Shown here piece after piece: positions 736-58,624 of a DNA stretch of 64,000 bases (position 1 is the stretch's first letter; every line of letters begins with the position of its first letter). Origin of the DNA: Clostridia bacterium (GTDB lineage: Bacteria > Bacillota > Clostridia > UMGS1883); the NCBI GenBank assembly GCA_045651805.1, contig JAZRTB010000026.1, positions 283 through 64,282 on the forward strand, read 5' to 3'. The translations under genes were made by a program, and so were the position numbers. Below the pieces are notes generated by a model. That model made no database searches and was not told the DNA's origin. It was given only the letters and a program-made list of their open reading frames with translations.

Positions 736-961
736 GGGATGTTAAAAACGCCCTGAACACAAAAGGCAATTAAAAGAATATTTAAATTTGTGCTAAAAAC
801 ATCAATTAATTTGTTCAAAGTAGAGAAACCATATGATAATATGGTTTCTCTTTATTTTACTTCTTTTGTTACGAACAAACTTCACCTCGACGTACCCTCG
901 TACGCCTTCGGTTCCACCCTTCGGGCTCAGTTTGTCCGTTCAGGACGTTTTTTCCTATCCC
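736..961 (+). repeat. Copy A of the 5-copy TIR-bounded structured intergenic element (~226 bp)
   Basis: Starts GGGATGTTAAAAACGCCCTGAAC and ends GTTCAGGACGTTTTTTCCTATCCC (inverted ends). It contains the shared core ACGAACAAACTTCACCTCGACGTACC..GTACGCCTTCGG..CAGTTTGTCCGTTC. It begins 10 nt after the putP stop. Confidence 0.8.
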
Positions 962-974
962 TCCTGATTTCTCT

Positions 975-1024
975 CGCCCTGAACACAAAGGGCAATTAAA
1001 AGAATATTTAAATTTGTGCTAAAA
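975..1024 (+). repeat. 50-bp direct duplicate of the internal 5' part of copy A (matches 749-799 with 1 mismatch)
   Basis: CGCCCTGAACACAAA(A/G)GGCAATTAAAAGAATATTTAAATTTGTGCTAAAA is seen twice, at 749-799 and 975-1024. Confidence 0.85.
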
Positions 1025-1032
1025 GCATAAAT

Positions 1033-2800: not shown

Positions 2801-4042
2801 TCATCCTTTTAAATCTTTATATAAGTACAAAGACCCACATATAAGGATAGTATTTCCTTTTTCACGGGCAATATTATATGCCGCCTGAATATTTTCGCAA
2901 GGGGTTGCATTAAATCCGAATTTTCCGAATTTTTCCGCAAGTGCCTCTGCAGTTGCCGCACGGGGATTATCCTTTACCTGCACAGTAAAAATTTCTGCTT
3001 TTTCGCAGAATCCATGTTCTTTCATAAGTGCGAGAGATGCATTGATATCCTTGTCCGCCATAGCACCGTAAATAATTGAAAGCTTTTCGCCTGCAAAATA
3101 TCTTTCCACCGCATCAACAAGCGCAGTTGTGCCATTAAGGTTATGTGCACCGTCAAAAATTACTGCAGGATTATCCGCAAGCTTTTCAAATCTGCCTATA
3201 TTTCTTGCACGTTCAAGCCCTGTGCGTATGTATTTTTCATCAATGCCGAGATATTTTGCAGTCTGAACGGCAAGTGATGCATTTTCCGTCTGATGAAGTC
3301 CCGCAAGGTAAATTTTAAGGTCTTTCATATCACCGATATCAAACTTTTCGCAAAGACCCTCGTGGGAGCCGTTTTCGGGTTTTTCTGCTATAATAAAGCT
3401 ACTGTTTCGCTCTTTTGAAGCTTCTGAAAGAACCTCCATAACCGCACCTTTTTGAGGAGTTACGATAACTGCACTATTATCCTTTATAATGCCTGCCTTT
3501 TCAAAGGCAATTTTTTCGATAGTGTCACCAAGATATTCCGTGTGGTCAACATCAATTTTCGTAATCACGCTGCAAAGCGGAGCTTTTATGATATTGGTTG
3601 CATCAAGGCGTCCGCCGAGACCTGTTTCAAGGACAACTATATCACACTTTTCTTTTTCAAAATATATAAATGCTGCCGCAGTCCATATCTCAAACTGGGT
3701 TGGCATAGCACCTTTTTCCTTTTCTACTTCCTTTGCGTGTTTTTCAACCTCCGAAAGGATTTCATCAAGTTCACTTTGCGAAATGTCTTTACCGTCAATG
3801 CTTATACGCTCTGTCACGTCAATCATATTAGGGGAAATGAATTTTCCCGTTTTAAGACCGCTGTCCGTGAGCATACAGGAAAGAAATGCACAGGTAGAGC
3901 CTTTTCCGTTAGTTCCTGCAACGTGAACAAATTTAAGATTATCCTGGGGATTTCCGCACTTTTCGCAAAGTGCCCCTACGGATTCAAGTCCAAGACGGCT
4001 TTTCGCCTGAAAGCTGTTTGCATATGTTTTAAAATCACTCAT
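2801..4042 (-). CDS. folC: bifunctional folylpolyglutamate synthase / dihydrofolate synthase
   Basis: 413 aa with the Mur-ligase P-loop VAGTNGKGST. Its start overlaps the folT stop (ATGA). Confidence 0.9.
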   Translation of the reverse strand: MSDFKTYANSFQAKSRLGLESVGALCEKCGNPQDNLKFVHVAGTNGKGSTCAFLSCMLTDSGLKTGKFISPNMIDVTERISIDGKDISQSELDEILSEVEKHAKEVEKEKGAMPTQFEIWTAAAFIYFEKEKCDIVVLETGLGGRLDATNIIKAPLCSVITKIDVDHTEYLGDTIEKIAFEKAGIIKDNSAVIVTPQKGAVMEVLSEASKERNSSFIIAEKPENGSHEGLCEKFDIGDMKDLKIYLAGLHQTENASLAVQTAKYLGIDEKYIRTGLERARNIGRFEKLADNPAVIFDGAHNLNGTTALVDAVERYFAGEKLSIIYGAMADKDINASLALMKEHGFCEKAEIFTVQVKDNPRAATAEALAEKFGKFGFNATPCENIQAAYNIAREKGNTILICGSLYLYKDLKG

Positions 4043-4578
4043 TGTCTGCCATCCTTTTTAGTAAAATCTTTTAATCTGAAAACGAATTTTTTTGTAATAC
4101 ACATTGCGGTTATCTGCACCGCAAGAAGTACTGCCGCAGGAATTACCCTGACACTGCATGCCGTCAGGAAGTTCGGAAAATATCCCACATCTGCAAGAAT
4201 TTTTGACATTACGGTCATACTTATCACAAACTGAAGCACACCGCACACAACAGCTCTTACATAATACATTTTATTGTCTTTCGCTTTGTAAAAGCACAAG
4301 CCGAAAACCACACCGCACAAAAATTCAACTGCCGTAATCTGCGGAAGCGGCGGACCCACGGGGAAAAGCACAGAATTAAGAACATCTGCAATCGCACCTA
4401 CAATTCCCCCTGCCACCGGTCCGAAAATCACCCCTGTAAAAAATACGGAAATGAATTTTGTGGGAATTTTTATCTGATTGCCTATTCTGAAAGTTGCATA
4501 TATTCCCAGAATAGCTGTGATTGCCGTAAACACGGCGAAAAGACAAATCTCTCTTGTAGTAATTTTTTTCTTTTTCAT
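4039..4578 (-). CDS. folT: folate ECF-transporter S component
   Basis: The start is taken at the internal MKKKKITTREICLF (nt 4578), directly after the riboswitch terminator. The product is a small 5-6 TM protein upstream of folC. The 54-codon N-terminal extension in the ORF track covers riboswitch RNA. Confidence 0.75.
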   Translation of the reverse strand: MKKKKITTREICLFAVFTAITAILGIYATFRIGNQIKIPTKFISVFFTGVIFGPVAGGIVGAIADVLNSVLFPVGPPLPQITAVEFLCGVVFGLCFYKAKDNKMYYVRAVVCGVLQFVISMTVMSKILADVGYFPNFLTACSVRVIPAAVLLAVQITAMCITKKFVFRLKDFTKKDGRQ

Positions 4579-4580
4579 AA

Positions 4581-4617
4581 ATAAAACGACCTTTCTGCAG
4601 GTCGCTGCAGAAAGGTC
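4581..4617 (-). terminator. Intrinsic terminator (expression platform of the THF riboswitch)
   Basis: On the minus strand GACCTTTCTGCAG-CGAC-CTGCAGAAAGGTC is followed by GTTTTATTT, immediately before the folT ATG. Confidence 0.75.
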
Positions 4618-4635
4618 ATTAGTATGCCTATAGTG

Positions 4636-4810
4636 CAGCAACGGAATGCGAAACCGCAACCGCAAATGACAAGCAAATGCAAAATGATGGTTGATATTTG
4701 TCCTTGACAAATATTTTTTTATTTTGTTTTCGCATCTCACTTGTCACTTTTCGTCAGAGAAGCAACTTCCCGTCTTCTCCACACTTAACGCAGCAGTTTC
4801 TACTTTGCTG
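4636..4810 (-). promoter_or_regulatory. THF (tetrahydrofolate) riboswitch aptamer carrying a large inserted hairpin
   Basis: The minus strand reads CAGCAA-AGUAG-AAACUGC-UGCGUUAAGUGUG-GAGAAG-ACGGGAAGUUG-CUUCUC...GCGGUUUC-GCAUUCCG-UUGCUG. GCGUUAAGUGUG and the GGGA.GU.G loop match the E. siraeum THF aptamer as I remember it. P1 (CAGCAA/UUGCUG), P2 (GAAACUGC/GCGGUUUC) and the pseudoknot (CGGGAAG/CAUUCCG) can all be drawn. Confidence 0.7.
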
Positions 4811-19379: not shown

Positions 19380-19410
19380 AAAAAAGGTTGTCCGAAGACA
19401 ACCTTTTTTA
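19380..19410 (-). terminator. Intrinsic terminator (UUCG loop) downstream of element copy D
   Basis: On the minus strand AAAAAAGGTTGTC-TTCG-GACAACCTTTTTT. Confidence 0.75.
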
Positions 19411-19459
19411 TTCGTTTTATTAAAAACAGCTAATTGGGCATTTTTAACATTCCAATCAT

Positions 19460-19687
19460 GGGAATAGGAAAAAATGTTCAGAACACACAAATGGAACCGA
19501 AGGGATACCCGAAGGCGTATGTGGATACGCCGAGAGGTGACATTTGTGCGTAACAAAACGAATCAATCCGAAATTTGCATCGCAAATTTCTACCTAAGAC
19601 ACTTAAAAGAACTTTGTTCCGACACTGAATAAAATCTTCTCTCCAAAACACTATTCGTTTTGCGGTCTGGGCATTTTTAACATTCCC
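19460..19687 (-). repeat. Copy D of the TIR-bounded structured element (~228 bp)
   Basis: The minus strand starts GGGAATGTTAAAAATGCCCAGACC and ends GTTCTGAACATTTTTTCCTATTCCC. It begins 9 nt after the oxidoreductase stop. An extra partial left end (GGAATGTTAAAAATGCCCA) lies at 19435-19453. Confidence 0.85.
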
Positions 19688-19696
19688 AATCCACTA

Positions 19697-20734
19697 TCAA
19701 TTCATTTTAATGTCTGTAAGATCAGCTACTGTATGATGCTTTTCCGCATCGTACATCTTCCAGATTACCTGCAAGCTCTTAAGTGCAGTTTTGCCGTCAG
19801 TAAGAGGAGTTTCACCTGTGCGGATACATTTTGCAAAATGTCTGATTTCAAACTGTGTCATCTTACCGATTGCAGTATGATCCTTCCAGACAACCGTGTA
19901 TTTCTGGTCTTCTGCCTGATTTACAATATGATGATGATTCTGGTTATAAAGTTTGATTTCACCTACGGCACGGTCATACTCGAGAAGTCCCTTTTCAGTC
20001 ATAATCTGACAGTCCCAACCGAGCTTTGTACCTCTTGCACCCCATGTAGCACCGTGATAACCGAGTGCACCGTTTTCAAACTTGAAGATAGCAACGCTTG
20101 TACCTTCTCCGAGAATCCACGGAACGCCGACCTTTGTTCCGAAGTGTGCACCCTCAACAGGGTTACCGAGGAACCACAACAAAATGTCAACATAGTGACA
20201 GCCGTGGCTGAAAAACTGACCGCCGCCAAGACGTGCAGTAGCCTTCCAGATAGTTTCACTGTCGTACTTTGTAAGCTGCTCTGTCCAGATTGACATCTGC
20301 ATAACCTGACCGTACTCACCGCTGTCAATCATTTCCTTAAGTTTAACAATGCCGGGCCAATGACGAACGGGATATGCACACTGAAGCACAACGCCCTCAT
20401 CTTCGCAAGCCTTGATAAGACGGAGACATTCTTCCTCTGTATTGCAAAGAACCTTTTCCATAAGAATATGCTTTTTACTTCTTGCAAAGAACATACCGCA
20501 TTCATAGTGCAAATCGTGAGGAAGTGCAACGAGAACAGCATCAACGTAGTCCACCATTGTCTTCCAGTCTGTTGTAACGTAAGCATCGGGCTTAATTTTT
20601 GCAAAGTCCTGTGCCTGCTCAATTATAATATCACAAAAGGCGGTGATTTCCACTTCTTCTACTTCCGAGAGACTTTCAACGTGAGCTCTCATCATTTTAC
20701 CGCAACCAACAATACCAAGTCTTAATTTTTCCAT
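19697..20734 (-). CDS. Gfo/Idh/MocA-family NAD(P)-dependent oxidoreductase
   Basis: MEKLRLGIVGCGKM Rossmann N-terminus. The start is chosen 8 nt behind an AAGGAAAGGA RBS. Confidence 0.85.
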   Translation of the reverse strand: MEKLRLGIVGCGKMMRAHVESLSEVEEVEITAFCDIIIEQAQDFAKIKPDAYVTTDWKTMVDYVDAVLVALPHDLHYECGMFFARSKKHILMEKVLCNTEEECLRLIKACEDEGVVLQCAYPVRHWPGIVKLKEMIDSGEYGQVMQMSIWTEQLTKYDSETIWKATARLGGGQFFSHGCHYVDILLWFLGNPVEGAHFGTKVGVPWILGEGTSVAIFKFENGALGYHGATWGARGTKLGWDCQIMTEKGLLEYDRAVGEIKLYNQNHHHIVNQAEDQKYTVVWKDHTAIGKMTQFEIRHFAKCIRTGETPLTDGKTALKSLQVIWKMYDAEKHHTVADLTDIKMN

Positions 20735-20881
20735 TTTTATCATCCTTTCCTTAAGATACTTTTATTATAAAATGTTTTTTATCAAAAGTCTTTAGACATA
20801 AAAACCGTATTTTTGCACATTTGGTATCAAATCGCTTGATTTTTAGGACACAATATTTTATAATGTAACAAGGTGATAAAA

Positions 20882-24853: not shown

Positions 24854-24928
24854 GCGGGAGTGGCTCAGTGGTAGAGCGTCACCTTGCCAAGGTGAACGTC
24901 GCGAGTTCGAATCTCGTCTTCCGCTCCA
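24854..24928 (+). tRNA. tRNA-Gly (anticodon GCC), CCA encoded
   Basis: The cloverleaf folds by hand: acceptor GCGGGAG/CTTCCGC, anticodon stem TCACC/GGTGA, loop TTGCCAA, T-loop GTTCGAATC. Confidence 0.93.
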
Positions 24929-32157: not shown

Positions 32158-32741
32158 TGACATTTCTTCTCCTTTTTATAGAATTTTTTAAGACAGGTCT
32201 TTTCGCCATCGGTGGAGGACTTGCAACAATCCCCTTCCTCCGTGTAATGTGTAAAACATACCCTACATGGTTTAACGAGGAGCTTCTCACAAATATGATT
32301 GCCGTAGGCGAATCAACTCCCGGTCCAATCGGTGTAAATATTGCAACGTATGTGGGTTTTACCGTAGGTCACAGCGAGGGAGGTTTGGGGACGGCAATCC
32401 TCGGAGGTTTCTGGGTTACATTTGCCCTTGTATTGCCGTCATTCATTATAATCCTTATCGTTTCAAAGCTGCTTCAGTCATTCAAGGAAAACAGGCTTGT
32501 AAAACGGGGATTCTACTCTATCCGCCCTGCAGTTGTAGGTATGATTGCTTCTGCAGCACTTACTATGATTTACGGTTCAGTTTTTACAAAGGGCGGAAAC
32601 CTTCTCCACTCAATTGATATTAAAGCGGCTATTCTTTTCATCGCACTCATTGTTGCGACAAACACAAAGAAGCTTAAAAAGCTTCATCCTATTGTATTTA
32701 TAATAATAGCCGGTGTTGTCGGTGCTATATTTAAATTTTAA
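32154..32741 (+). CDS. chrA: chromate transporter (CHR family), second half-size subunit
   Basis: 195 aa paralog with FAIGGGLATIPFL. Confidence 0.8.
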   Translation: MMTFLLLFIEFFKTGLFAIGGGLATIPFLRVMCKTYPTWFNEELLTNMIAVGESTPGPIGVNIATYVGFTVGHSEGGLGTAILGGFWVTFALVLPSFIIILIVSKLLQSFKENRLVKRGFYSIRPAVVGMIASAALTMIYGSVFTKGGNLLHSIDIKAAILFIALIVATNTKKLKKLHPIVFIIIAGVVGAIFKF

Positions 32742-32753
32742 TTAAGAGGTAAC

Positions 32754-32989
32754 GGGAATGTAAAAAAGTCCAGAACGCAAAAAGACGATAATATTATAAA
32801 TATTAAACCGTTATTAATTTGCAGAATGCTCTTTCTTTGGTTGAAAAACCTCGATTCTCTCAATTTTTCTGTATTTATGTTCTTTTTGCTACGAACAAAC
32901 TTCACCTCTCGACGTACCATTGTACGCCTTCGGGTAACCCAAGCTACGCTTGGTTCAGTTTGTCCGTTCTGAACATTTTTCCTATTCCC
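32754..32989 (+). repeat. Copy B of the TIR-bounded structured element (~236 bp)
   Basis: Starts GGGAATGTAAAAAAGTCCAGAACGC and ends GTTCTGAACATTTTTCCTATTCCC. It begins 12 nt after the chrA stop. TTAAGAGGTAAC is duplicated at 32742-32753 and 33007-33018. Confidence 0.85.
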
Positions 32990-33022
32990 TATAAATTATA
33001 CTATTTTTAAGAGGTAACAATA

Positions 33023-35164
33023 ATGGATATTTTAAAACAACTTTGTATTGAATTAAAAACAGACGAAAAACACACTCAAAACGTAATCAATATGCTTGAC
33101 GAGGGAAATACTATCCCCTTTATCGCCCGATACCGTAAGGAATTAACAGGCAATATGGACGACCAGCTTGTACGTGCGATTTCCGTACGCCTTGCCGCAC
33201 TTCGCGCAATCGAGGAAAGAAAGGCGGAGGTTATACGTCTTATCGATGAACAGGGTAAGCTTACAGACGAAATTACTGCAGCGGTAGAAAAGGCACAGAC
33301 CCTTACCGAGCTTGAGGATATTTACCGTCCCTACCGTCCCAAGAGAAAAACCCGTGCAAGCGTTGCGAGAGAAAAAGGGCTTGAACCTCTTTCTGCCCTT
33401 ATTATGGAGCAGGAATTCAGCGGAGATATTAACGAAGAAGCCGCAAAATACATAGATGAAGAAAAGGGTGTTACCTCTGTTGAAGAAGCGATCCAGGGTG
33501 CGCTCGACATCATTGCCGAGGACATCAGCGACAATGCAGATTACAGAAAGAATATCCGCCGTCTTACATATATGAATGGCGTTATCACAAGTAAGCAGGG
33601 CAAAGAGGAAAATGCAGTTTACCAGATGTATTATGAGTATTCCGAACCTGTTAAAGCCGTTGCAGACCACCGCATCCTTGCTATGGACCGCGGTGAAAAG
33701 GAAGATGTTCTTTCCGTTAAAATTGAGCTTGATACGGAGTTAATCACAGATTACCTTTATAAGCAGGTTATAAAGAATAACTCACAGCTTTCCGACCTTG
33801 TGAAAGAAGCTGTCAATGATTCATATAAAAGGCTTATCGCACCCTCTATCGAAAACGAAATCCGTTCCGACCTTACAGAGCGTGCACAGAATGGTGCAAT
33901 CGGTCTTTTCAGCGTGAATCTTAAAAATCTTCTTATGACTCCCCCTGTTAAAGGGCACACGGTGTTAGGTGTTGACCCCGGCTACAGAACGGGTTGTAAG
34001 CTTGCAGTAGTTGACAGTACGGGTAAAGTTCTTGAAACGGGCGTTGGCTATTTCACTCTTGAACACCACGACACAGAAAAGGCGAAAAAGCAGATTAAGG
34101 GAATGATTGAAAGAAACGATGTTACCCTTATCTCAATCGGTAACGGTACTGCAACGGGCGAAAGCGAGAAGTTTATTGCATCACTTATTCCCGAGCTTGA
34201 CCGCCCTGTAAAATATATGGTGGTTTCCGAGGCAGGTGCATCTGTTTATAGTGCAAGTGAACTTGGTGCGAAGGAATTCCCCGATTACGACGTATCTCTC
34301 CGTAGCGCGGTTTCTATCGCTCGTCGTCTTCAGGACCCCCTTGCAGAGCTTGTTAAGATTGACCCCCGTTCAATCGGTGTAGGTCAGTATCAGCACGACT
34401 GTAATCAAAAGAAGCTGTCGGGTGCACTCGGCGGTGTAGTTGAAGACTGTGTTAATAACGTAGGCGTTGACCTTAACACGGCTTCGGCATCACTTCTTTC
34501 ATACATTTCAGGTATTTCCTCTGCAGTAGCACAGAACATTGTTGACTACCGCGAGGAAAACGGCTCATTCACAAAAAGAAAAGAGCTTCTTAAGGTTAAA
34601 AAGCTCGGTGAAAAAGCATTTGTGCAGTGTGCAGGCTTTATGCGTATTCCTATGGGTAAGGAATTCCTCGATAATACTTCCGTTCATCCCGAAAGCTACG
34701 ATGCGGCAAGGGCACTTATTGTAAAATGCGGATACACCGATGAAGAAATCAAAAAAGGTGCTTTTTCTGATATTACAAGCCGTATTACAAAGGAAGCCGC
34801 AGAGGAAATCTGTAAAGAATTCGAAATCGGTATGTTCACACTCCGCGATATTTGTGACACTCTTGCAAAGCCCGGCAGAGATATGCGTGATGAGCTTCCC
34901 AAGCCTCTCCTTCGCAGCGGTTGTATGTCACTTGAAGAACTCACTCCCGGTATGATTTTAGAAGGAACTGTAAGAAATGTAATTGACTTTGGTGCATTTG
35001 TTGACATTGGCGTGCATCAGGACGGACTTGTGCATATATCACAGATTTCCGACAAATTCATCAAGCATCCTACAGATGTATTGAGTGTTGGTGATATTGT
35101 TAAGGTAAAAGTTTTAGAAGTTGATATTAATAAGAAGCGAATTTCTCTTACTATGAAGATATAA
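33023..35164 (+). CDS. tex: Tex-like transcription accessory protein (YqgF/HhH/S1 domains)
   Basis: 713 aa with the IPFIARYRKE N-terminus and a C-terminal S1 domain (GMILEGTVRNVIDFGAFVDIGVHQDGLVHISQ). Confidence 0.92.
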   Translation: MDILKQLCIELKTDEKHTQNVINMLDEGNTIPFIARYRKELTGNMDDQLVRAISVRLAALRAIEERKAEVIRLIDEQGKLTDEITAAVEKAQTLTELEDIYRPYRPKRKTRASVAREKGLEPLSALIMEQEFSGDINEEAAKYIDEEKGVTSVEEAIQGALDIIAEDISDNADYRKNIRRLTYMNGVITSKQGKEENAVYQMYYEYSEPVKAVADHRILAMDRGEKEDVLSVKIELDTELITDYLYKQVIKNNSQLSDLVKEAVNDSYKRLIAPSIENEIRSDLTERAQNGAIGLFSVNLKNLLMTPPVKGHTVLGVDPGYRTGCKLAVVDSTGKVLETGVGYFTLEHHDTEKAKKQIKGMIERNDVTLISIGNGTATGESEKFIASLIPELDRPVKYMVVSEAGASVYSASELGAKEFPDYDVSLRSAVSIARRLQDPLAELVKIDPRSIGVGQYQHDCNQKKLSGALGGVVEDCVNNVGVDLNTASASLLSYISGISSAVAQNIVDYREENGSFTKRKELLKVKKLGEKAFVQCAGFMRIPMGKEFLDNTSVHPESYDAARALIVKCGYTDEEIKKGAFSDITSRITKEAAEEICKEFEIGMFTLRDICDTLAKPGRDMRDELPKPLLRSGCMSLEELTPGMILEGTVRNVIDFGAFVDIGVHQDGLVHISQISDKFIKHPTDVLSVGDIVKVKVLEVDINKKRISLTMKI

Positions 35165-50908: not shown

Positions 50909-50984
50909 CGGGGTGTAGCGCAGCTGGTAGCGCGCCTGCTTTGGGAGCAGGATGCCGCAGGTTCAAGTCCTGTCACTCCGACCA
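50909..50984 (+). tRNA. tRNA-Pro (anticodon UGG), CCA encoded
   Basis: Hand-folded cloverleaf: acceptor CGGGGTG/CACTCCG, D-stem GCGC/GCGC, anticodon stem CCTGC/GCAGG, loop TTTGGGA, T-loop TTCAAGT. Confidence 0.93.
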
Positions 50985-52687: not shown

Positions 52688-54667
52688 ATGAATTTAAAAT
52701 ATGGTTTTTCATATTATCCCGAGCATTGTAATTCTCTTGAAGAAATACAGCTTGATATAGACCTTATTGTAAAATCAGGCGCCAATGTTGTCCGTATGGG
52801 CGAATTTGCCTGGGACCAGATGGAAAAGCACGAGGGTGAGTACGATTTCAGCACATTTACATACACCGTTAATGAGCTTGGAAAATGCGGTGTCTACACA
52901 GTTATGTGTACCCCTACTTCCTGCCCGCCTGCCTGGATGATGAGAAAGCATCCCGAAATCAGTTATGTTGACTACAGAGGTGTCAAAAGACCTTTCGGAG
53001 CAAGACATCATTATTGCTACAACAGTCCTGTATACCGCGATTACTCGGAGAAAATCACTTCCGAGATGGCGAAGGAATACAAAGATAATCCCTATGTAAT
53101 CGGTTTCCAGATAGGAAACGAATTCGCACAGGAGCATTCGGGCCGATGTCATTGTCCCGTATGTGCAGAAAAATTCCGTACATATCTCAAGGACAAATAT
53201 AAGACCATCGACGGATTCAACTTCGCCTGCGGAACTTATGCATGGGGTGAAAGTTATACTTCTTTTGATGAGGTTGACCCGCCACACACAACTTATGAAG
53301 CAACCGAACCCGACCTGATTCACGATTTCTATGACAATCCCGGCTTGAGACTTAATTTCGAAAACTTCTGCAGTGATTCATTCTGCGAATACCTTGACGT
53401 TCAGCGAAAAGTTTTGCAAAAAACCGATAAAATCGTAACAACCAACTCCACAGGTCTTGGCAGAAATCAGATTAACTACTATGATTTCTTCAAGGACCTT
53501 GACCTTTTCGGTATGGATATATATCCCTCTCTTTGGGATCCTGACCACAAGGTGAGCCAGCTTACATACGCATTCTGCCGTTCTATAATGAAAAAGCCTT
53601 TCTGGGCACTTGAATTTGCAATCGGGGGCGGTCACGGTCTCTGGGCAAAAGAAGGCAGACTTCAGCCGGTTCCCGGAGCAATTGAGCTTGAGGTAATGCA
53701 CGCATTTGCGAGCGGAGCAGAACTTCTTGCTCATTTCCAGTACAAGCAGTTCAGAAGCGGTGCAGAACAGCTTAACTATGCACTTCTTGAAACTGACAGA
53801 GTGCCGAGAAGAAGATATTTTGAATTTCAAAAAACCGCAAAGGCTATAGAAAAGTACGAGCCTATTCTTGAAAGCACATTTGTAAAGAAACCGCAGACTG
53901 CAATTATATTTGATTACAACGCTTTGTGGACCCTTCTTATAAAGCCTGTTAACCACGACTTTTCTTACATAGAATTTATGGCGAAATTCTACGACACACT
54001 TCGTTCAATCGGTGTTGAGGCAGATATTGTGCCTCCCACGGCAGATTTATCGGAATATTCCCTCGTTATCTCGCCTGCTCCAATTGTGACAAATATGGAA
54101 TATATCGAAAATTTGAAAAACTACGTTAAAAACGGTGGTAATCTTCTCGGCACATTCCTTACATCCGTCAAGGATTATGATAACGTCGGCTACGACGTAT
54201 CGCTTCCCTCATACCTTACAGATGTGTACGGAATAAGAGTGAGCGAGTTTGAGCCTGTGTTTGAATCCTCCCGTGCTAATATTGACCTCGGTTTTGCAAA
54301 GTCGCTCAATTACCATTGGATTGATGAGCTTGAGTGTACAACTGCAACTGCAATCGGCACATTCAGCGATACCTACCGCAAAGGAAAGGCTGTCATTACA
54401 AAGAACATCTATAACAAGGGTACTGCATATTATATGGGTACAATGCTTGATGATTGTGCATTCAAGGCACTCCTTGAACGGGTGACGGATGAATGTAATA
54501 TAGAAAAAGTTCCGTTCAGTTTCCCTGAAAGCTGTACTGTTGTAACCCGTGAGGGCGACGAAAAAACATACTATTTCATTATGAACTACGACAAAGAAGA
54601 AGTAAGCATTGAATTTAACGGCAAAGAAATTAAAATCGCACCGATAAGTTATGCGGTGGCAAAATAA
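52688..54667 (+). CDS. GH42-family beta-galactosidase
   Basis: 659 aa. The N-terminus YYPEHCNSLEEIQLDIDLIVKSGANVVRMGEFAWDQME and the Cys cluster CHCPVC are typical of GH42. Confidence 0.9.
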   Translation: MNLKYGFSYYPEHCNSLEEIQLDIDLIVKSGANVVRMGEFAWDQMEKHEGEYDFSTFTYTVNELGKCGVYTVMCTPTSCPPAWMMRKHPEISYVDYRGVKRPFGARHHYCYNSPVYRDYSEKITSEMAKEYKDNPYVIGFQIGNEFAQEHSGRCHCPVCAEKFRTYLKDKYKTIDGFNFACGTYAWGESYTSFDEVDPPHTTYEATEPDLIHDFYDNPGLRLNFENFCSDSFCEYLDVQRKVLQKTDKIVTTNSTGLGRNQINYYDFFKDLDLFGMDIYPSLWDPDHKVSQLTYAFCRSIMKKPFWALEFAIGGGHGLWAKEGRLQPVPGAIELEVMHAFASGAELLAHFQYKQFRSGAEQLNYALLETDRVPRRRYFEFQKTAKAIEKYEPILESTFVKKPQTAIIFDYNALWTLLIKPVNHDFSYIEFMAKFYDTLRSIGVEADIVPPTADLSEYSLVISPAPIVTNMEYIENLKNYVKNGGNLLGTFLTSVKDYDNVGYDVSLPSYLTDVYGIRVSEFEPVFESSRANIDLGFAKSLNYHWIDELECTTATAIGTFSDTYRKGKAVITKNIYNKGTAYYMGTMLDDCAFKALLERVTDECNIEKVPFSFPESCTVVTREGDEKTYYFIMNYDKEEVSIEFNGKEIKIAPISYAVAK

Positions 54668-54668
54668 T

Positions 54669-54711
54669 CAAAGTGGGTGTAAAGAAACCGAGTTTCTTTA
54701 CACCCACTTTT
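54669..54711. terminator. Bidirectional terminator between GH42 and element C/maa
   Basis: AAAGTGGGTGTAAAGAAAC-CGA-GTTTCTTTACACCCACTTT has a 19-bp stem. Confidence 0.8.
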
Positions 54712-54715
54712 GATT

Positions 54716-54940
54716 GGGAATAGGAAAAAATGCTTCAGAACGGACAAACTGGGCCCGAAGGCGTACAAAGGTACGTCGAGAGGCGAAGTTTGTTCAAAAC
54801 ACAAGGCGTTAAAACAGAAGAAATTCGTCAAACGACGAATTTCTTCCTTAAGATTATTTTATATTGTAGTTATGATTAAACGGCTTTGCTATGGCATATA
54901 TTTCGCCTTGTGTGGTGTACACATTTTGCTACAGCCTATT
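54716..54940 (-). repeat. Copy C of the structured element (3' two-thirds well conserved, 5' end degenerate)
   Basis: The minus strand ends GTTCTGAAGCATTTTTTCCTATTCCC. The core is GAACAAACTTCGCCTCTCGACGTACCTTTGTACGCCTTCGGGCCCAGTTTGTCC and the P1 equivalent is CACAAGGCG/CGCCTTGTG. The 5' boundary is uncertain. Confidence 0.7.
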
Positions 54941-54945
54941 TCTGT

Positions 54946-55530
54946 TCAATCCATGTGTATATACTTTTCCCTGTCTTCGGGAGTAATTTTTCTTATAACC
55001 TTGCAAGGATTTCCTACGGCTACAACACCTTCGGGAATGTCGTGTACAACGACACTGCCTGCACCTATTACGCTGTCTTTCCCGATGGTGACACCGCCAA
55101 CTATACTGACGCCGCCGCCTATCCATACGTTGTCTCCGATAGTTACGGGGAATGCATATTCAAGTCCTGCAATACGTTCGTCACGGTCAAGAGGATGACC
55201 TGCGGCATATATGCCTACATTTGGTGCAATCCATACGTTGTCACCGATTTTTACATAGTTTCCGTCAAGAACGATGAAATTGTAGTTTGCGAAAAAATTC
55301 TCTCCTATTTCAATACGATAACCGTAATCGCACCTGAATGGGGGAAGAATATTTGCGCCTTTTCCGACTTTGCCAAGCATTTTTGAAAGAAATTTTTCAC
55401 GCTCTTCAACCTGCGATGGCAAAAGCTTGTTGTATTCAACACACATATCCTGAATTTTAAATCTGTGCTCTACCATATCTTCTGACGGGCGGTAAAGATA
55501 TCCCGCCTCTGCTTTTTCTCTTTCTGTCAT
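54946..55530 (-). CDS. maa: maltose/galactoside O-acetyltransferase (hexapeptide-repeat)
   Basis: 194 aa with left-handed beta-helix repeats (IGDNVWIGGGVSIVGGVTIGKDSVIGAGSVV) and a Mac-type N-terminus. Confidence 0.88.
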   Translation of the reverse strand: MTEREKAEAGYLYRPSEDMVEHRFKIQDMCVEYNKLLPSQVEEREKFLSKMLGKVGKGANILPPFRCDYGYRIEIGENFFANYNFIVLDGNYVKIGDNVWIAPNVGIYAAGHPLDRDERIAGLEYAFPVTIGDNVWIGGGVSIVGGVTIGKDSVIGAGSVVVHDIPEGVVAVGNPCKVIRKITPEDREKYIHMD

Positions 55531-55617
55531 AAAAATCGCTCCTGTTTATTTTTGAAAATATACCCCAGGGGGTTGTATTGACGGAAAAATCAGGATTCAT
55601 CCGTCTTGGGTGTTTTC

Positions 55618-57516
55618 TTAAAGAGTTTCTTTGAATTTCTTGATTTCTTCCTTTGTTGTACATTCTATAATTAAAGGAAGTGTTTTTTCTATATATTCTT
55701 TAAGAAGTGCCTTATCCATCTTTTTTGGTTTTTCTCCTGTAAGACGCTTGAAGTTCTTATAAAGAACTTTTTCAAGTGTTTCACGGTCAAGGTCAACACC
55801 CACAAGCTTATTCCCCCACTTTGTGGTGAAGCGGTCAGGAGTTCTTAACCAGCGGTCAAGCATTGCAAGCTGTACTTCCTTATAGCGTGTGTGGAAGGCA
55901 TTCTTATCGTCTGTACCAAGCATTATGCGGTCAGCATACTTACAGAAAAACGCCTTTGTCTCCTCGGGAGTTTCGGAAAGGAAGTGAAGTTCTCTTTCCG
56001 CAGGAGTTGTATCAATGCACACATTTGGGTATTTGTCAAGAACTGCAGAAAGACGCGGAAGTTCTTCGCCCATAAAGAAGAAATGTGCAAAAGTAATCTT
56101 AAGATTGGGGTTCTTTTCAAGTCTTAAGAGAACATCCTCATAAATTTCTTCGCAGATTTTGTACATATTTTCAAGATTTTCTCTGCCTGCCCTCACCTCT
56201 GCACGGTGGCTTACCTGATCTGTGGCGTGGCAGATGATATGTATATTTTCTTCTTCAAGATAGTTGAAGAAGTCATCATAAATCTCGCCTGAAATTTTCG
56301 TGCCGATTTTCTTATATGCGTTAGGCTTTGTTTCAATAAGCTTGATTCCGTCAAAGCCCATATCAATAAGTGCCTTTGCCTGTTCGCGGAAGCCGTAGTC
56401 CTTTGTTACGGGGTATTCGGGATAGTAAAGACCGCCAAAAGCGTAAACTCTGTCATCCCCCATTTTTGCAACTGCACCGAGGACATTCTGTGATTCATCT
56501 CTTGCACCGAAAAGGTCAACCATATTGGGCATACAAAGAACGTTAAGTCCCTGAAGATTGCAAAGCTCCATATAAGCCTGTGCAGACTTCACAACATCAC
56601 CCGTGTCACCGCACTCGGGAAGATAGTCGGTAGGATACATACTCATATCATCGGTATGCCATTGCATCTGATGATAGTGGCAGTCGATTCCCTGCACGTC
56701 TGCATTCTGGAATTTTCTGAAACCGAATGTATCGTAAAGCTTTCCACCACCGAGAATATGCTCCTTAAGGCTTTTCTGGAAAGAGTTTTTCGGTTCAAAG
56801 TCCGCAAGGTTATCCTTTGTGACATTTTTACCGAATGCAAATTTGATTGCGCTGTAGTCTTCCTTTTTCATATAAGGCTCGAAAAGGTCACGGAATTTAA
56901 TAATGTTGGAGTCGGGTTTGAGGAACTTATCAAGAGTTCTGTCGAGAAGCCACGACCCGCACATAAATCCCTTGATTTCCTTTTCGGGGAAATGCTTTTT
57001 AAAGAATCTTTCCGCCTCGAGAAGCGAACGGTATGCATCAGTTTCGTCAAGCTTACCGCCACCGGGAATATGTACCGCGATAATAGTATCGCCAAGCTTT
57101 ACAACGTCACCGTCGTCGCACCATGATTCAAAAAGGGTTTCAAGGCCGAAGTTAAGTCTGCCGATTCTGAAAAGGTATGTTCCTTTCATAACGGCATTTG
57201 TCCAGCCAACCTCATACACACCGATTTTGCCGAAGGTTTCCTTGCAGCTTTTTGCTTCGCCAACAAGACCCGAAGCCGTAGCACGGAAATACTTTTCGTC
57301 TATGCCGCGTTCATCCATTGCCTGCTTTGTATTGTCAAGCTGTGAAAGAAAATAGATAAGGTTAAGACCGTAATCCTTTTTCTCACCAAGGATTTTCACG
57401 CAGTTTTCGGAATTAAGACCCGATATATCCTTGCTTTCTGCAAGGGCATAAAATTCCTCGTCAAATTCAGCAGGAAATTCAAGATATTTGTACCATTTAA
57501 TAGCTGTTTCGTTCAT
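55618..57516 (-). CDS. fusion protein: N-terminal acyltransferase-like domain plus C-terminal amidohydrolase-type (TIM-barrel metal hydrolase) domain
   Basis: 632 aa. The N-terminal ~270 aa resemble DUF5596/GNAT-like acyltransferases (from memory). The C-terminal part has amidohydrolase-like His/Asp contexts (IDCHYH, ICHATD, MLGTDD). Confidence 0.5.
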   Translation of the reverse strand: MNETAIKWYKYLEFPAEFDEEFYALAESKDISGLNSENCVKILGEKKDYGLNLIYFLSQLDNTKQAMDERGIDEKYFRATASGLVGEAKSCKETFGKIGVYEVGWTNAVMKGTYLFRIGRLNFGLETLFESWCDDGDVVKLGDTIIAVHIPGGGKLDETDAYRSLLEAERFFKKHFPEKEIKGFMCGSWLLDRTLDKFLKPDSNIIKFRDLFEPYMKKEDYSAIKFAFGKNVTKDNLADFEPKNSFQKSLKEHILGGGKLYDTFGFRKFQNADVQGIDCHYHQMQWHTDDMSMYPTDYLPECGDTGDVVKSAQAYMELCNLQGLNVLCMPNMVDLFGARDESQNVLGAVAKMGDDRVYAFGGLYYPEYPVTKDYGFREQAKALIDMGFDGIKLIETKPNAYKKIGTKISGEIYDDFFNYLEEENIHIICHATDQVSHRAEVRAGRENLENMYKICEEIYEDVLLRLEKNPNLKITFAHFFFMGEELPRLSAVLDKYPNVCIDTTPAERELHFLSETPEETKAFFCKYADRIMLGTDDKNAFHTRYKEVQLAMLDRWLRTPDRFTTKWGNKLVGVDLDRETLEKVLYKNFKRLTGEKPKKMDKALLKEYIEKTLPLIIECTTKEEIKKFKETL

Positions 57517-57571
57517 AGTAAAAACCTCTCATTTTGCATTATGCATTTTGCATTTTTAGCATCCCGTCAAA

Positions 57572-57800
57572 GGAGTAGGAAAAAAGTTTCAGAATGTGCA
57601 AACTGAACCCCGAAGGGGGGTACCCGAAGGCGTATGTGGATACGCCGAGAGGTGAAGTTTGCGCATAGCAAAACGAATCAATCCGAAATTTGCTTTGCAA
57701 ATTTCTACCGCAAACATTTAACGACACTTTGTTTTATTTCTCAATAAAAGCATCTTTTTAAAAATTATACGTTTTGCGTTCTGGAGCTTTTTAACACTCC
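57572..57800 (-). repeat. Copy E of the TIR-bounded structured element (~229 bp)
   Basis: The minus strand starts GGAGTGTTAAAAAGCTCCAGAACGC and ends ATTCTGAAACTTTTTTCCTACTCC. Its first 10 nt supply the last two codons and the TAA stop of the AAC(3)-like gene. Confidence 0.85.
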
Positions 57801-58624
57801 GTAATAGCTTTCCAATCTTTTAGCCAATTGAGCCATCCCTCAACATCAAAAAATCCATTATCCCACAAAATTCTGCGGTCTTGACTACGAAGATGATCAA
57901 GACAGGTATCAACGAAAATCTTACTGTCAAAACAGAGGAATGTTGCATCACCGCAGGTGCTTTCAGTCGGCTGATAACCTTCTTCTTTAAGAACATCAAC
58001 CATTGCAAGATTAAACACATGAGGCCATACACCTGTGTGTGACATCTGCCAGAGACGGTCTTTCATTTCATCGTATTCAGGCTTTCCTTCGATTGCTTTA
58101 AGAAGTTCTTCCATATACACATATTCCGCATAGTGACGGAATGTGATTGAGCCGGGCTTTACACCAAGAAGAACAATCTTTGCATTCATATTATACATCT
58201 TCTCCCAGGGGGAATCTGCGGAGAAAGGTGTGTCGCCCATAGAGCCGAAACGCTTATGCGTATGACCGTGAGTTTTTGTAAGTTCCTCTGCAAGTTTACC
58301 GCAAGCGGCAACAGAATGTGTTGCCTGGTCAGAACGGAGACTTCCCTCACGAAGTCTGAAATAGTTTGTAAGATAGCCTGTATCTGAAGGCTTATCAATA
58401 TGCCATGTTTCGTAAGCGTTAGCAAAATCCTTCTGTGTAAAGCAGGGGAATACAAGTGTACCCTCTTCCCCAAGCACATCAAGAAAACCGCTGATTACAT
58501 CTTCTGCACCGCCAACAACGTGACCCATACTTTTAAAAGATGAGTGTACAAGTACGCAGTCGCCCTCTTTAATACCGAGGTCGCGTACTGCTTTTTCAAT
58601 ATCCTGTCTTGTTACTTCTGTCAT
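57791..58624 (-). CDS. AAC(3)-family (aminoglycoside 3-N-acetyltransferase-like) protein
   Basis: 277 aa with the N-terminal LGIKEGDCVLVHSSFKSMG pattern of the Antibiotic_NAT family. The substrate cannot be inferred. Confidence 0.75.
   Translation of the reverse strand: MTEVTRQDIEKAVRDLGIKEGDCVLVHSSFKSMGHVVGGAEDVISGFLDVLGEEGTLVFPCFTQKDFANAYETWHIDKPSDTGYLTNYFRLREGSLRSDQATHSVAACGKLAEELTKTHGHTHKRFGSMGDTPFSADSPWEKMYNMNAKIVLLGVKPGSITFRHYAEYVYMEELLKAIEGKPEYDEMKDRLWQMSHTGVWPHVFNLAMVDVLKEEGYQPTESTCGDATFLCFDSKIFVDTCLDHLRSQDRRILWDNGFFDVEGWLNWLKDWKAITEC

Follow-up and report, generated by a model that had tools for sequence, protein, structure and literature searches.

A three-way-junction repeat behind gene ends in uncultured gut Clostridia, with its structural signal on the strand complementary to the upstream gene

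REP and REPIN elements are extragenic imperfect palindromes that occur in hundreds of copies without target-site duplication and are read as a folded single strand by RAYT, a Y1 HUH transposase encoded once, elsewhere in the genome; REPs can also act, secondarily, on mRNA stability or termination. In integron attC sites it is the folded bottom strand that is the active form. The REP, BIME and REPIN elements are reviewed in PMC3337134 and PMC3184786. Here we analyse an element of ca. 235 nt present in five copies in a 64,000-nt stretch of contig JAZRTB010000026.1 from a Clostridia bacterium (positions 283–64,282; this whole stretch is referred to as the window), which is a multi-copy repeat folding as a three-way junction. 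Its stems show the statistical pattern of a fold kept by selection, acting on the strand complementary to the upstream gene. The strand of the element in the sense of that gene is called below the sense strand, and its complement the bottom strand.

A core pattern (CGTAYCNNNNTACGCCTTCGG) has five exact matches in the window, with none expected by chance, and a covariance model of the 3′ module, built from 55 family members and run on the window with filters off, returns exactly five sites with 91–119 bits, the next match scoring 21.7 bits. Both searches confirm the places at which a reading of the sequence alone (the sequence-only reading) had put five copies, designated A to E:

736–961, plus strand: copy A (covariance-model match 858–965, 91.5 bits)
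19,460–19,687, minus strand: copy D (match 19,457–19,564, 107.5 bits)
32,754–32,989, plus strand: copy B (match 32,878–32,993, 119.4 bits)
54,716–54,940, minus strand: copy C (match 54,714–54,810, 96.4 bits)
57,572–57,800, minus strand: copy E (match 57,568–57,679, 109.2 bits)

The family is a genuine one beyond the window. A scan for the core in species-representative genomes gave at least 118 loci, and the model makes 123 matches in the 699 kb of loci fetched, including five in 8 kb of locus L061 and four in L069. Among the matches listed, nearly all are from metagenome-assembled genomes (MAGs) of uncultured Clostridia from animal and human guts, with the lineage labels Acutalibacteraceae, Oscillospiraceae, Congzhengia and Fimenecus, and three are from Campylobacterota MAGs, where a mini version stands right after stop codons and, in L048, in tandem. 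Many matches are situated at contig ends, as expected of a repeat that breaks assemblies. A scan of viral contigs identified only two, of which L120 is prophage-like, with portal, terminase and capsid genes, and BLAST searches of plasmids, phages and E. coli genomes gave no match. The Rfam check proposed by the sequence-only reading was run: with Rfam 15, the whole window at gathering score yielded only a tetrahydrofolate (THF) riboswitch and two tRNAs, and a permissive scan of copy D reached at best 30 bits against a cutoff of 47, on the downstream terminator, with nothing relevant, so that this is not a named Rfam family. The literature was also searched, including the core sequence as text, and no description of the element was found.

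The two ends of the element form a closing helix, P0, with a GC-rich foot followed by an A-run/T-run and then a GC stem. On the sense strand, the 5′ end (S1) reads GGGRWTGTAAAAAAGYSCAGAMC and the 3′ end (S2) reads GTTCTGMAC.ATTTTTYCCTATCCCC; these inverted ends, of ca. 25 nt, are present in copies A, B, D and E and in most loci, and are asymmetric in a constant way (5′ GGGAAT-GTT-AAAAATG versus CATTTTT-TCCT-ATTCCC). The exception is copy C, a chimera whose 5′ end (GGCTGTAGCAAAATGTGTACACC) belongs to the GTAGCAAAATG subfamily and whose 3′ end belongs to the GGGAAT subfamily, and whose ends pair poorly. The second element of the fold is P1, a hairpin whose sequence varies (its 5′ strand is, for example, GCAAAAAGR) and that encloses 60–100 unconserved bases and a small hairpin, P1a (GRAGAAATYCG...CGRATTTCT), situated before the 3′ strand of P1; this further hairpin, already noticed in the five copies, is real and semi-conserved across the family. 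A junction UAY joins P1 to P2 (GAACAAACT), which carries the near-invariant core in the order TCR-CCTCTCG-[RCGTAC-CNNN-GTACGC]-CTTCGG-G, followed by an apical hairpin and the 3′ strand of P2. The stretch TCACCTCTCG, previously taken as invariant, has to be narrowed to CCTCTCG: the preceding TCR varies, and copy A, with a core 2 nt shorter (CACCTCG), lacks the CT. In turn, the GCGTAC/GTACGC hairpin of the core is supported by a C-G to U-A covariation in copies D and E.

The length of the apical hairpin varies from 0 to ca. 40 nt, being absent from copy C, and does so in non-triplet steps, which agrees with the earlier conclusion that the element is non-coding. Although the middle is unconserved, the core lies 145–165 nt from the 5′ end in most loci, and all five window copies have their 5′ end, located with a sequence-only hidden Markov model, 150–153 nt upstream of the core. 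Locus L005 lacks the variable part altogether. In the mini version from Campylobacterota, of ca. 110 nt, P1 is replaced by a GC(UUCG)GC mini-hairpin, the core is kept and the closing stem (AAAAGTTCCAG/CTGGAACTTTT) is similar to that of the main family. Directly downstream of one of these mini-elements (L034, ca. 268–345) there is a microsatellite, (ACACGTA) repeated about 12 times. The variable region did not show any significant match elsewhere in the window, on either strand, that would make it a guide or spacer. The core did not fit the K-turn, sarcin-ricin/loop E, hammerhead, 11-nt receptor, dif/Xer or Tn3-family inverted-repeat consensuses, a comparison by inspection that serves as a lead and not as a test.

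The sequence-only reading had proposed that P1 and P2 vary among copies while staying complementary, and this holds for the family. In 61 full elements (alignment A2), using a structure specified by us, all 10 pairs of P1 change on both sides, with 95% of cells paired, and seven of the nine pairs of P2 covary. For the whole structure, 86.2% of cells are standard pairs, compared with 77.4% in shuffled alignments and 31–45% in controls in which the structure was slid; 25 pairs change on both sides, versus ca. 15 in the shuffles, and the covariation score is 0.217, versus 0.074 in the shuffles and 0.04–0.07 in the slid controls. None of 500 shuffles reached the observed values, although this control is affected by the kinship among the sequences. 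Chance is an unlikely source of the covariation in view of the slid controls and of the variety of pair types at each position.

Non-Watson-Crick cells are distributed very unevenly between the strands. In the same 61 elements there are 208 sense-strand A·C or C·A cells, which are G·U on the complement, versus 23 that are G·U on the sense strand. The ratio of A·C to G·U is 28:7 in P0a, 30:4 in P0b, 45:2 in P0c, 16:5 in P1, 52:5 in P2 and 37:0 in P4, having the same sign in every helix with such cells and also in an independent alignment. Accordingly, the complement has 93.5% of its cells in standard pairs and the sense strand 86.2% (98.2% versus 89.6% in P2, and 100% versus 89.9% in P4). The folding energy is lower on the complement in 68 of 70 elements, with means of −80.3 and −70.7 kcal/mol, and likewise in all five window copies. 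The usual deamination bias would act in the opposite direction to this asymmetry. The unpaired bases that are conserved are rich in purines when read on the complement (CCGAAGG / CGAGAGG) and in pyrimidines when read on the sense strand. The strand caveat attached to the first five copies, A·C in sense and G·U in antisense, was therefore real and is much stronger family-wide. By contrast, the statement that UUCG loops favour the sense strand did not hold, because the loops at the apex are of several kinds and, of the G·U pairs in that hairpin, 23 are on the complement and three on the sense strand.

In 69 of 82 elements, a co-oriented open reading frame (ORF) of at least 80 codons ends between −11 and +45 nt from the element start, with a median of ca. 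3 nt. The rule that the element always lies on or just after a stop codon thus stands for most of the family, but "always" is too strong, since in L060, L079 and the prophage locus L120 the 5′ end faces a divergent promoter; of the 13 exceptions, four are preceded by another copy of the element. The orientations of the window copies along the sequence (+, −, +, −, −) match in each case that of their own upstream gene; orientation follows the local gene rather than the direction of replication. Downstream neighbours are convergent in 36 of 56 cases and co-oriented in 20, and no common class was found among the downstream genes. In L061, the copies follow hprK, pgsA, tmcAL (two in tandem) and a DUF1292 gene, and are therefore inside housekeeping operons, nearly every gene there having one behind it; the DUF1292 gene precedes a gene for a Clp-type AAA+ ATPase, and ruvX also flanks the run. 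Elements also follow orthologous rpoD-like genes (L022/L099) and class II fructose-bisphosphate-aldolase-like genes (L024/L078) in different species, with differing subfamilies, which means that either the same gene ends received the element again or the copies diverged over a long time through compensating changes.

Since the element has the orientation of the upstream gene and lies ahead of the terminator or of the next ribosome binding site (RBS), as it also does between genes of the same operon in L061, its sense strand must be transcribed, as had been argued before; from placement and orientation, this transcription is certain. The transcribed strand and the strand with the structural signal thus appear to differ. 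A stable hairpin occurs within the following 60 nt in 38 of 60 elements, resembling, in the sequences viewed, a bidirectional terminator with A and T runs, and this puts the element inside the upstream transcription unit. These data would fit a cis-acting RNA of the upstream gene's mRNA, a 3′ untranslated or intercistronic module that could be a barrier to 3′ exonucleases, a processing site or a protein platform, with the pyrimidine-rich CCUCUCG/CUUCGG loop, or else a large terminator with a structured insert in its A-run/GC-stem/U-run closing helix. Such a role predicts what is seen in each divergent copy, namely that the conserved module is kept, and it agrees with the retention behind rpoD and fba orthologs. 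On either strand, the bases of the closing helix read as an A-run followed by a GC stem and a T-run, which is a terminator-like layout. Nevertheless, the outer helix P0a lies beyond the U-run and would be lost if termination occurred there, the downstream genes share no class, and the element in prophage L120 is opposite in orientation to the genes. The 9:1 asymmetry is in the wrong direction, the sense fold being weaker by ca. 10 kcal/mol. We consequently regard a functional sense RNA, which the sequence-only reading had implied, as somewhat unlikely, being disfavoured by the asymmetry in 61–73 elements. P1a was also considered as the terminator of the upstream gene and was rejected, since only 34% of these hairpins are terminator-like in the sense direction (20% in antisense).

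The asymmetry could be explained directly if the strongly folding complement were itself the working RNA, that is, an antisense RNA or an insulator against convergent transcription. It would derive from read-through from a convergent downstream gene or from a weak promoter, start at GGGGAUAGG and end at a GC stem and U7 run abutting the stop codon of the gene it protects, thus shielding that gene. The G·U signature and the purine-rich conserved loops are those expected of this RNA, almost two thirds of the downstream genes are convergent, and on the complement the U-run adjoining the stop codon comes directly after the 3′ strand of the closing stem. Additionally, the antisense 5′ end of copy B is preceded, 5 nt upstream, by a perfect TATAAT. 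Across the family, however, sigma-70-like promoters showed no positional enrichment in either orientation, outside or inside the element, which lends no support to an independent transcription unit or antisense RNA. In most loci viewed, an incoming polymerase would be stopped by a hairpin with a T-run situated just ahead of the antisense 5′ end, and the 20 co-oriented contexts are tandem genes or operons without a convergent partner. We consider this explanation decidedly unlikely.

A further peculiarity is S3, a copy of the element's own 5′ end that is found 2–16 nt after the 3′ end in 26 of 60 elements (43%) and that is closer to the S1 of its own element than to that of other loci. Either it forms the left arm of a perfect hairpin (S3:S4) resembling a bidirectional terminator, or a tandem copy, partial or complete, begins with it. 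The first arrangement recalls a translation-coupled attenuator, in which a ribosome at the stop codon would cover S1, freeing S2 to pair with S3 and blocking the S3:S4 terminator hairpin, so that read-through would depend on translation of the upstream gene. Indeed, the 5′ end lies within the ribosome footprint of the stop codon, and S3, with its likeness to S1 and its hairpin with flanking T-runs, completes a classic four-strand layout. Most elements lack S3, though, and where it occurs it may just as well be the beginning of a tandem copy; in the many cases of a convergent downstream gene there is nothing to regulate; some exceptions have no upstream ORF; and neither the conserved core nor the strand asymmetry would be explained. 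Attenuation is thus very improbable. Hairpins of the S1 type were also evaluated as a general class of terminator or as empty target sites, and these possibilities were rejected because the cases checked, in 880 kb, all adjoin an element.

Several features indicate that the element behaves as a repeat. The copies in MAG SUG1177 (L025, L075, L077, L079, L095 and L103) are near-identical, including the "variable" region, and the prophage of L120 carries two near-identical copies, also including this region, at different sites. After each of these two copies (L120, 2860–3050 and 7600–7800) there is a second, unrelated GC-rich repeat of ca. 200 nt (…GCCGTTTTGCGGCTTC…CCGCAAAACAAAACCGCTGC…), which may be another repeat family travelling with the element. 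The element is absent from L091 behind a gene where L028 and L047 carry it. Behind one orthologous gene, L020 and L096 have different subfamilies and L069 has a remnant whose S1 runs straight into the S2 end. Tandem or partial second copies are common. The MITE-like role at the DNA level that the sequence-only reading left open is thus supported by near-identical copies, presence and absence, remnants, chimeras and tandems. No target-site duplication was found, nor an autonomous partner within 8 kb, in plasmids or in phages.

An ordinary MITE (a miniature transposable element with inverted repeats), with terminal inverted repeats bound as double-stranded DNA by a DDE transposase encoded elsewhere and internal stems without a role, would account for the ca. 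25-nt inverted ends, the small size and the many copies, and for the subfamilies whose two ends change together, the deletion derivatives and the chimeras. It would not account for the constant difference between the two ends, for an orientation tied to the flanking gene, or for the strong covariation of P1 and P2, which an end-binding transposase does not require. Target-site duplications are lacking family-wide, and no insertion sequence with the same ends was found nearby (8 kb), in plasmids or in phages. We therefore consider a conventional MITE quite improbable.

Comparison with the described systems yields a mixed picture. Like the REP, BIME and REPIN elements, the element is extragenic and non-coding, lies behind stop codons or between convergent genes or cistrons, is often clustered or in tandem and makes no target-site duplication. 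Unlike REP/REPIN, which are hairpins or doublets of 20–40 nt, it is a ca. 235-nt three-way junction with a non-palindromic, near-invariant core and is strictly oriented relative to the upstream gene, and its GTAG, GTAA or GTGA is inside the 5′ end, within the S3:S4 hairpin stem, instead of forming a 5′ GT[AG]G head. No RAYT gene was found within the 8-kb stretches around the matches. With attC sites the element shares a place directly 3′ of an ORF in a fixed orientation, imperfect inverted repeats with a constant asymmetry, a structure kept under changing sequence, and a variable centre; the structured bottom strand is a resemblance in logic only. The gene-element-gene-element pattern of L061 also resembles a cassette array. 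Nonetheless, the element has no R″ (RYYYAAC) or R′ (GTTRRRY) site, since its CCAGAAC/GTTCTGA is internal, in P0c, and matches only AAC/GTT; it is about twice the maximal length of attC, with a highly conserved internal core, and the flanking genes are housekeeping genes in conserved operons and not cassettes. No integrase cluster was found among the 827 ORFs around 118 loci, nor an attI.

In appearance, the element is closer to Correia/NEMIS, ERIC/IRU, the pneumococcal BOX and RUP and the bcr1 of Bacillus cereus. These repeats, of 100–250 nt, also have inverted ends, many copies in transcribed intergenic regions, long stem-loops and modular or deletion variants, and they can alter mRNA processing or termination. 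They conserve sequence, however, whereas the internal stems of the element show copy-specific compensating changes; most of them insert in either orientation, several make target-site duplications, and none shares its core or ends. The ends of IS200/IS605, the PATEs and the scaffolds of TnpB omega-RNA share with it the strand-specific folding of a single strand, without a requirement for inverted repeats and without target-site duplication, and this group also includes short non-autonomous derivatives and a structured non-coding RNA at one end. The element differs in having no conserved 4–5-nt left target (GTC, AAC, ATT and TAC in the window), no similar pair of subterminal hairpins (P1a, P4 and the apical hairpin are mutually unrelated), no tnpA or tnpB within 8 kb and an orientation that follows the gene and not replication. 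By analogy, it would work most like REP/REPIN and attC, as a single strand read by structure behind ORFs, while its appearance is that of transcribed repeats of the MITE type (Correia, ERIC, BOX). For the families tested, it lacks what defines them: R″/R′ sites, a target-site duplication, a short GTAG-headed palindrome or an Rfam match.

With its best-folding strand opposite the gene, the element looks more like a structure-dependent mobile repeat than like an ordinary 3′ untranslated RNA. The reading we favour, tentatively and with a little less than even confidence, is that the repeat is non-autonomous and that a single-strand mechanism acting in trans, on the bottom strand, uses its fold as substrate. 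A trans-acting enzyme would copy or move the element as a single strand, either bottom-strand DNA or, less likely, antisense RNA or complementary DNA (cDNA), following the logic of REP/REPIN and RAYT, the IS200/IS605 ends, attC and the attP site of the CTX phage. Copies would survive mainly where they are least harmful, between cistrons or in the gap from a stop codon to its terminator, and they would do so only when oriented with the weaker-folding strand in the mRNA; such a rule would explain both the strict placement and the preference of A·C over G·U. S3 and the tandem copies might then be by-products of the copying step. More speculatively, selection could be dual: a change from G-C to a sense A·C, which is G·U on the complement, would weaken the fold of the mRNA while keeping the complement foldable, suiting both host and element.

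Several observations weigh against this reading. About three quarters of the A·C excess comes from five or six helix-end positions adjacent to junctions, where it could reflect a purine/pyrimidine preference instead of wobble pairs, although the interior positions, obtained by subtraction from the per-pair table, still give ca. 4:1 for A·C. The strand counts are cells from many related sequences, and so the events are not independent. The single-stranded DNA exposed at replication forks or transcription bubbles is normally gene-sense, which leaves a bottom-strand signal without a ready physical explanation. Exact flank repeats of at least 8 nt, as a target-site duplication would leave, occur in 6.8% of cases versus 4.7% in a permuted control, and all-against-all clustering of the 827 ORFs identified no recurrent transposase, recombinase or reverse transcriptase within 8 kb; no enzyme, intermediate or new insertion was seen, and movement itself is putative. 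Exact-protein look-ups of two flanking genes, in search of empty sites, returned no record. The different subfamilies behind the same gene could result from long vertical descent with compensating drift and not from re-insertion, and purifying selection on each old, divergent copy fits a host function as well as mobility. These readings do not exclude one another; the element plausibly began as a mobile one and was put to use by the host later, and the host possibly uses the element, secondarily, as a 3′-end or terminator module. In a more far-reaching version, which we consider unlikely, the bottom strand would be read, as DNA or cDNA, through the CCGAAGG-[hairpin]-CGAGAGG loop by an undescribed recombinase, HUH nuclease or reverse transcriptase system, or the complement would be a new class of catalytic or protein-binding RNA, in either case having spread as a 3′ gene-end element across Clostridia, prophage and Campylobacterota.

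The combination of a near-invariant core across two phyla, strict placement at gene ends, covarying stems and an inverted strand signature, with the structural signal on the strand that is not the mRNA, is what makes the family noteworthy; solving this puzzle would uncover either a novel pair of enzyme and substrate by which small DNA is moved or a 3′-end RNA module of a new kind. Its members lie behind core genes such as hprK, pgsA, rpoD and fba, with up to five copies per 8 kb, and if the density of L061 holds genome-wide they would make up a sizeable unannotated share of many genomes of uncultured gut Clostridia. MAG assemblies are probably broken by the element, and spurious ORFs are called across it. 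The covariance model from this analysis is already able to find the family.

The copies in the window are spaced 2.8–19 kb apart and are mostly old and divergent, with 64% mean column identity, unrelated variable regions and upstream genes unrelated to each other. Around them we identified the following features:

975–1027, plus strand: partial second copy of the 5′ part of copy A, 13 nt past its end
19,432–19,457, minus strand: S3 of copy D, 24 nt that repeat its own 5′ end in direct orientation, together with 4 flanking nt (GATTGGAATGTTAAAAATGCCCA)
32,742–32,753 and 33,007–33,018, plus strand: exact 12-nt direct repeat TTAAGAGGTAAC to the left and right of copy B (the tex RBS)
54,670–54,712, no strand assigned: bidirectional terminator hairpin right after copy C, with a left arm (GTGGGTGTAAAGAAAC) that resembles the family 5′ end
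57,545–57,565, minus strand: segment like the family 5′ end (GGGATGCTAAAAATGC), 6 nt past copy E

Copy A starts 10 nt past the stop codon that ends a fragment of a sodium:solute symporter gene (ORF 75–725); its partial repeat begins at position 13 of the 5′ end and extends into the variable region, positions 992–1024 being 100% identical to 766–798 by BLAST. Copy B is intercistronic, without a terminator, and starts 12 nt past the stop codon of a chromate-transporter gene (32,739–32,741), with the ATG of tex at 33,023. The TTAAGAGGTAAC pair encloses copy B together with 17 further bases; no other family member is flanked by a repeat of this kind, which is either a one-off duplication restoring the RBS or a rare insertion footprint. 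Copy C follows, at ca. 6 nt from the stop codon, a maltose-acetyltransferase-like gene (54,946–55,530), and its terminator hairpin is shared with a convergent beta-galactosidase gene ending at 54,667. Copy D starts 9 nt past the TGA of a GFO/IDH/MocA oxidoreductase gene (19,697–20,743); its S3 has 14/14 identity to its own 5′ end and is followed by an ordinary terminator hairpin at ca. 19,385–19,415, so that the range first delimited here, 19,434–19,687, corresponds to copy D plus a second copy of its 5′ end. In the case of copy E, the TAA stop codon (57,793–57,791) of an aminoglycoside 3-N-acetyltransferase-family gene falls inside the 5′ end of the element, a correction to the sequence-only reading, the next gene starts at 57,516, and the GGGATGCTAAAAATGC segment is a variant different from the copy's own 5′ end.

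Copies E and C bracket the last two of three consecutive acyltransferase-type genes (54,946–58,624, minus strand), which code for the aminoglycoside 3-N-acetyltransferase-family protein, a GNAT_C/amidohydrolase fusion and the maltose-O-acetyltransferase-like hexapeptide protein. The two tRNA genes of the window (24,854–24,925 and 50,909–50,981, plus strand) are unrelated to the repeat. The THF riboswitch (4637–4809, minus strand, 72 bits) overlaps the GTG called as the start of ORF 4039–4740, at 4740, and the true start of this ORF is therefore probably situated further downstream.

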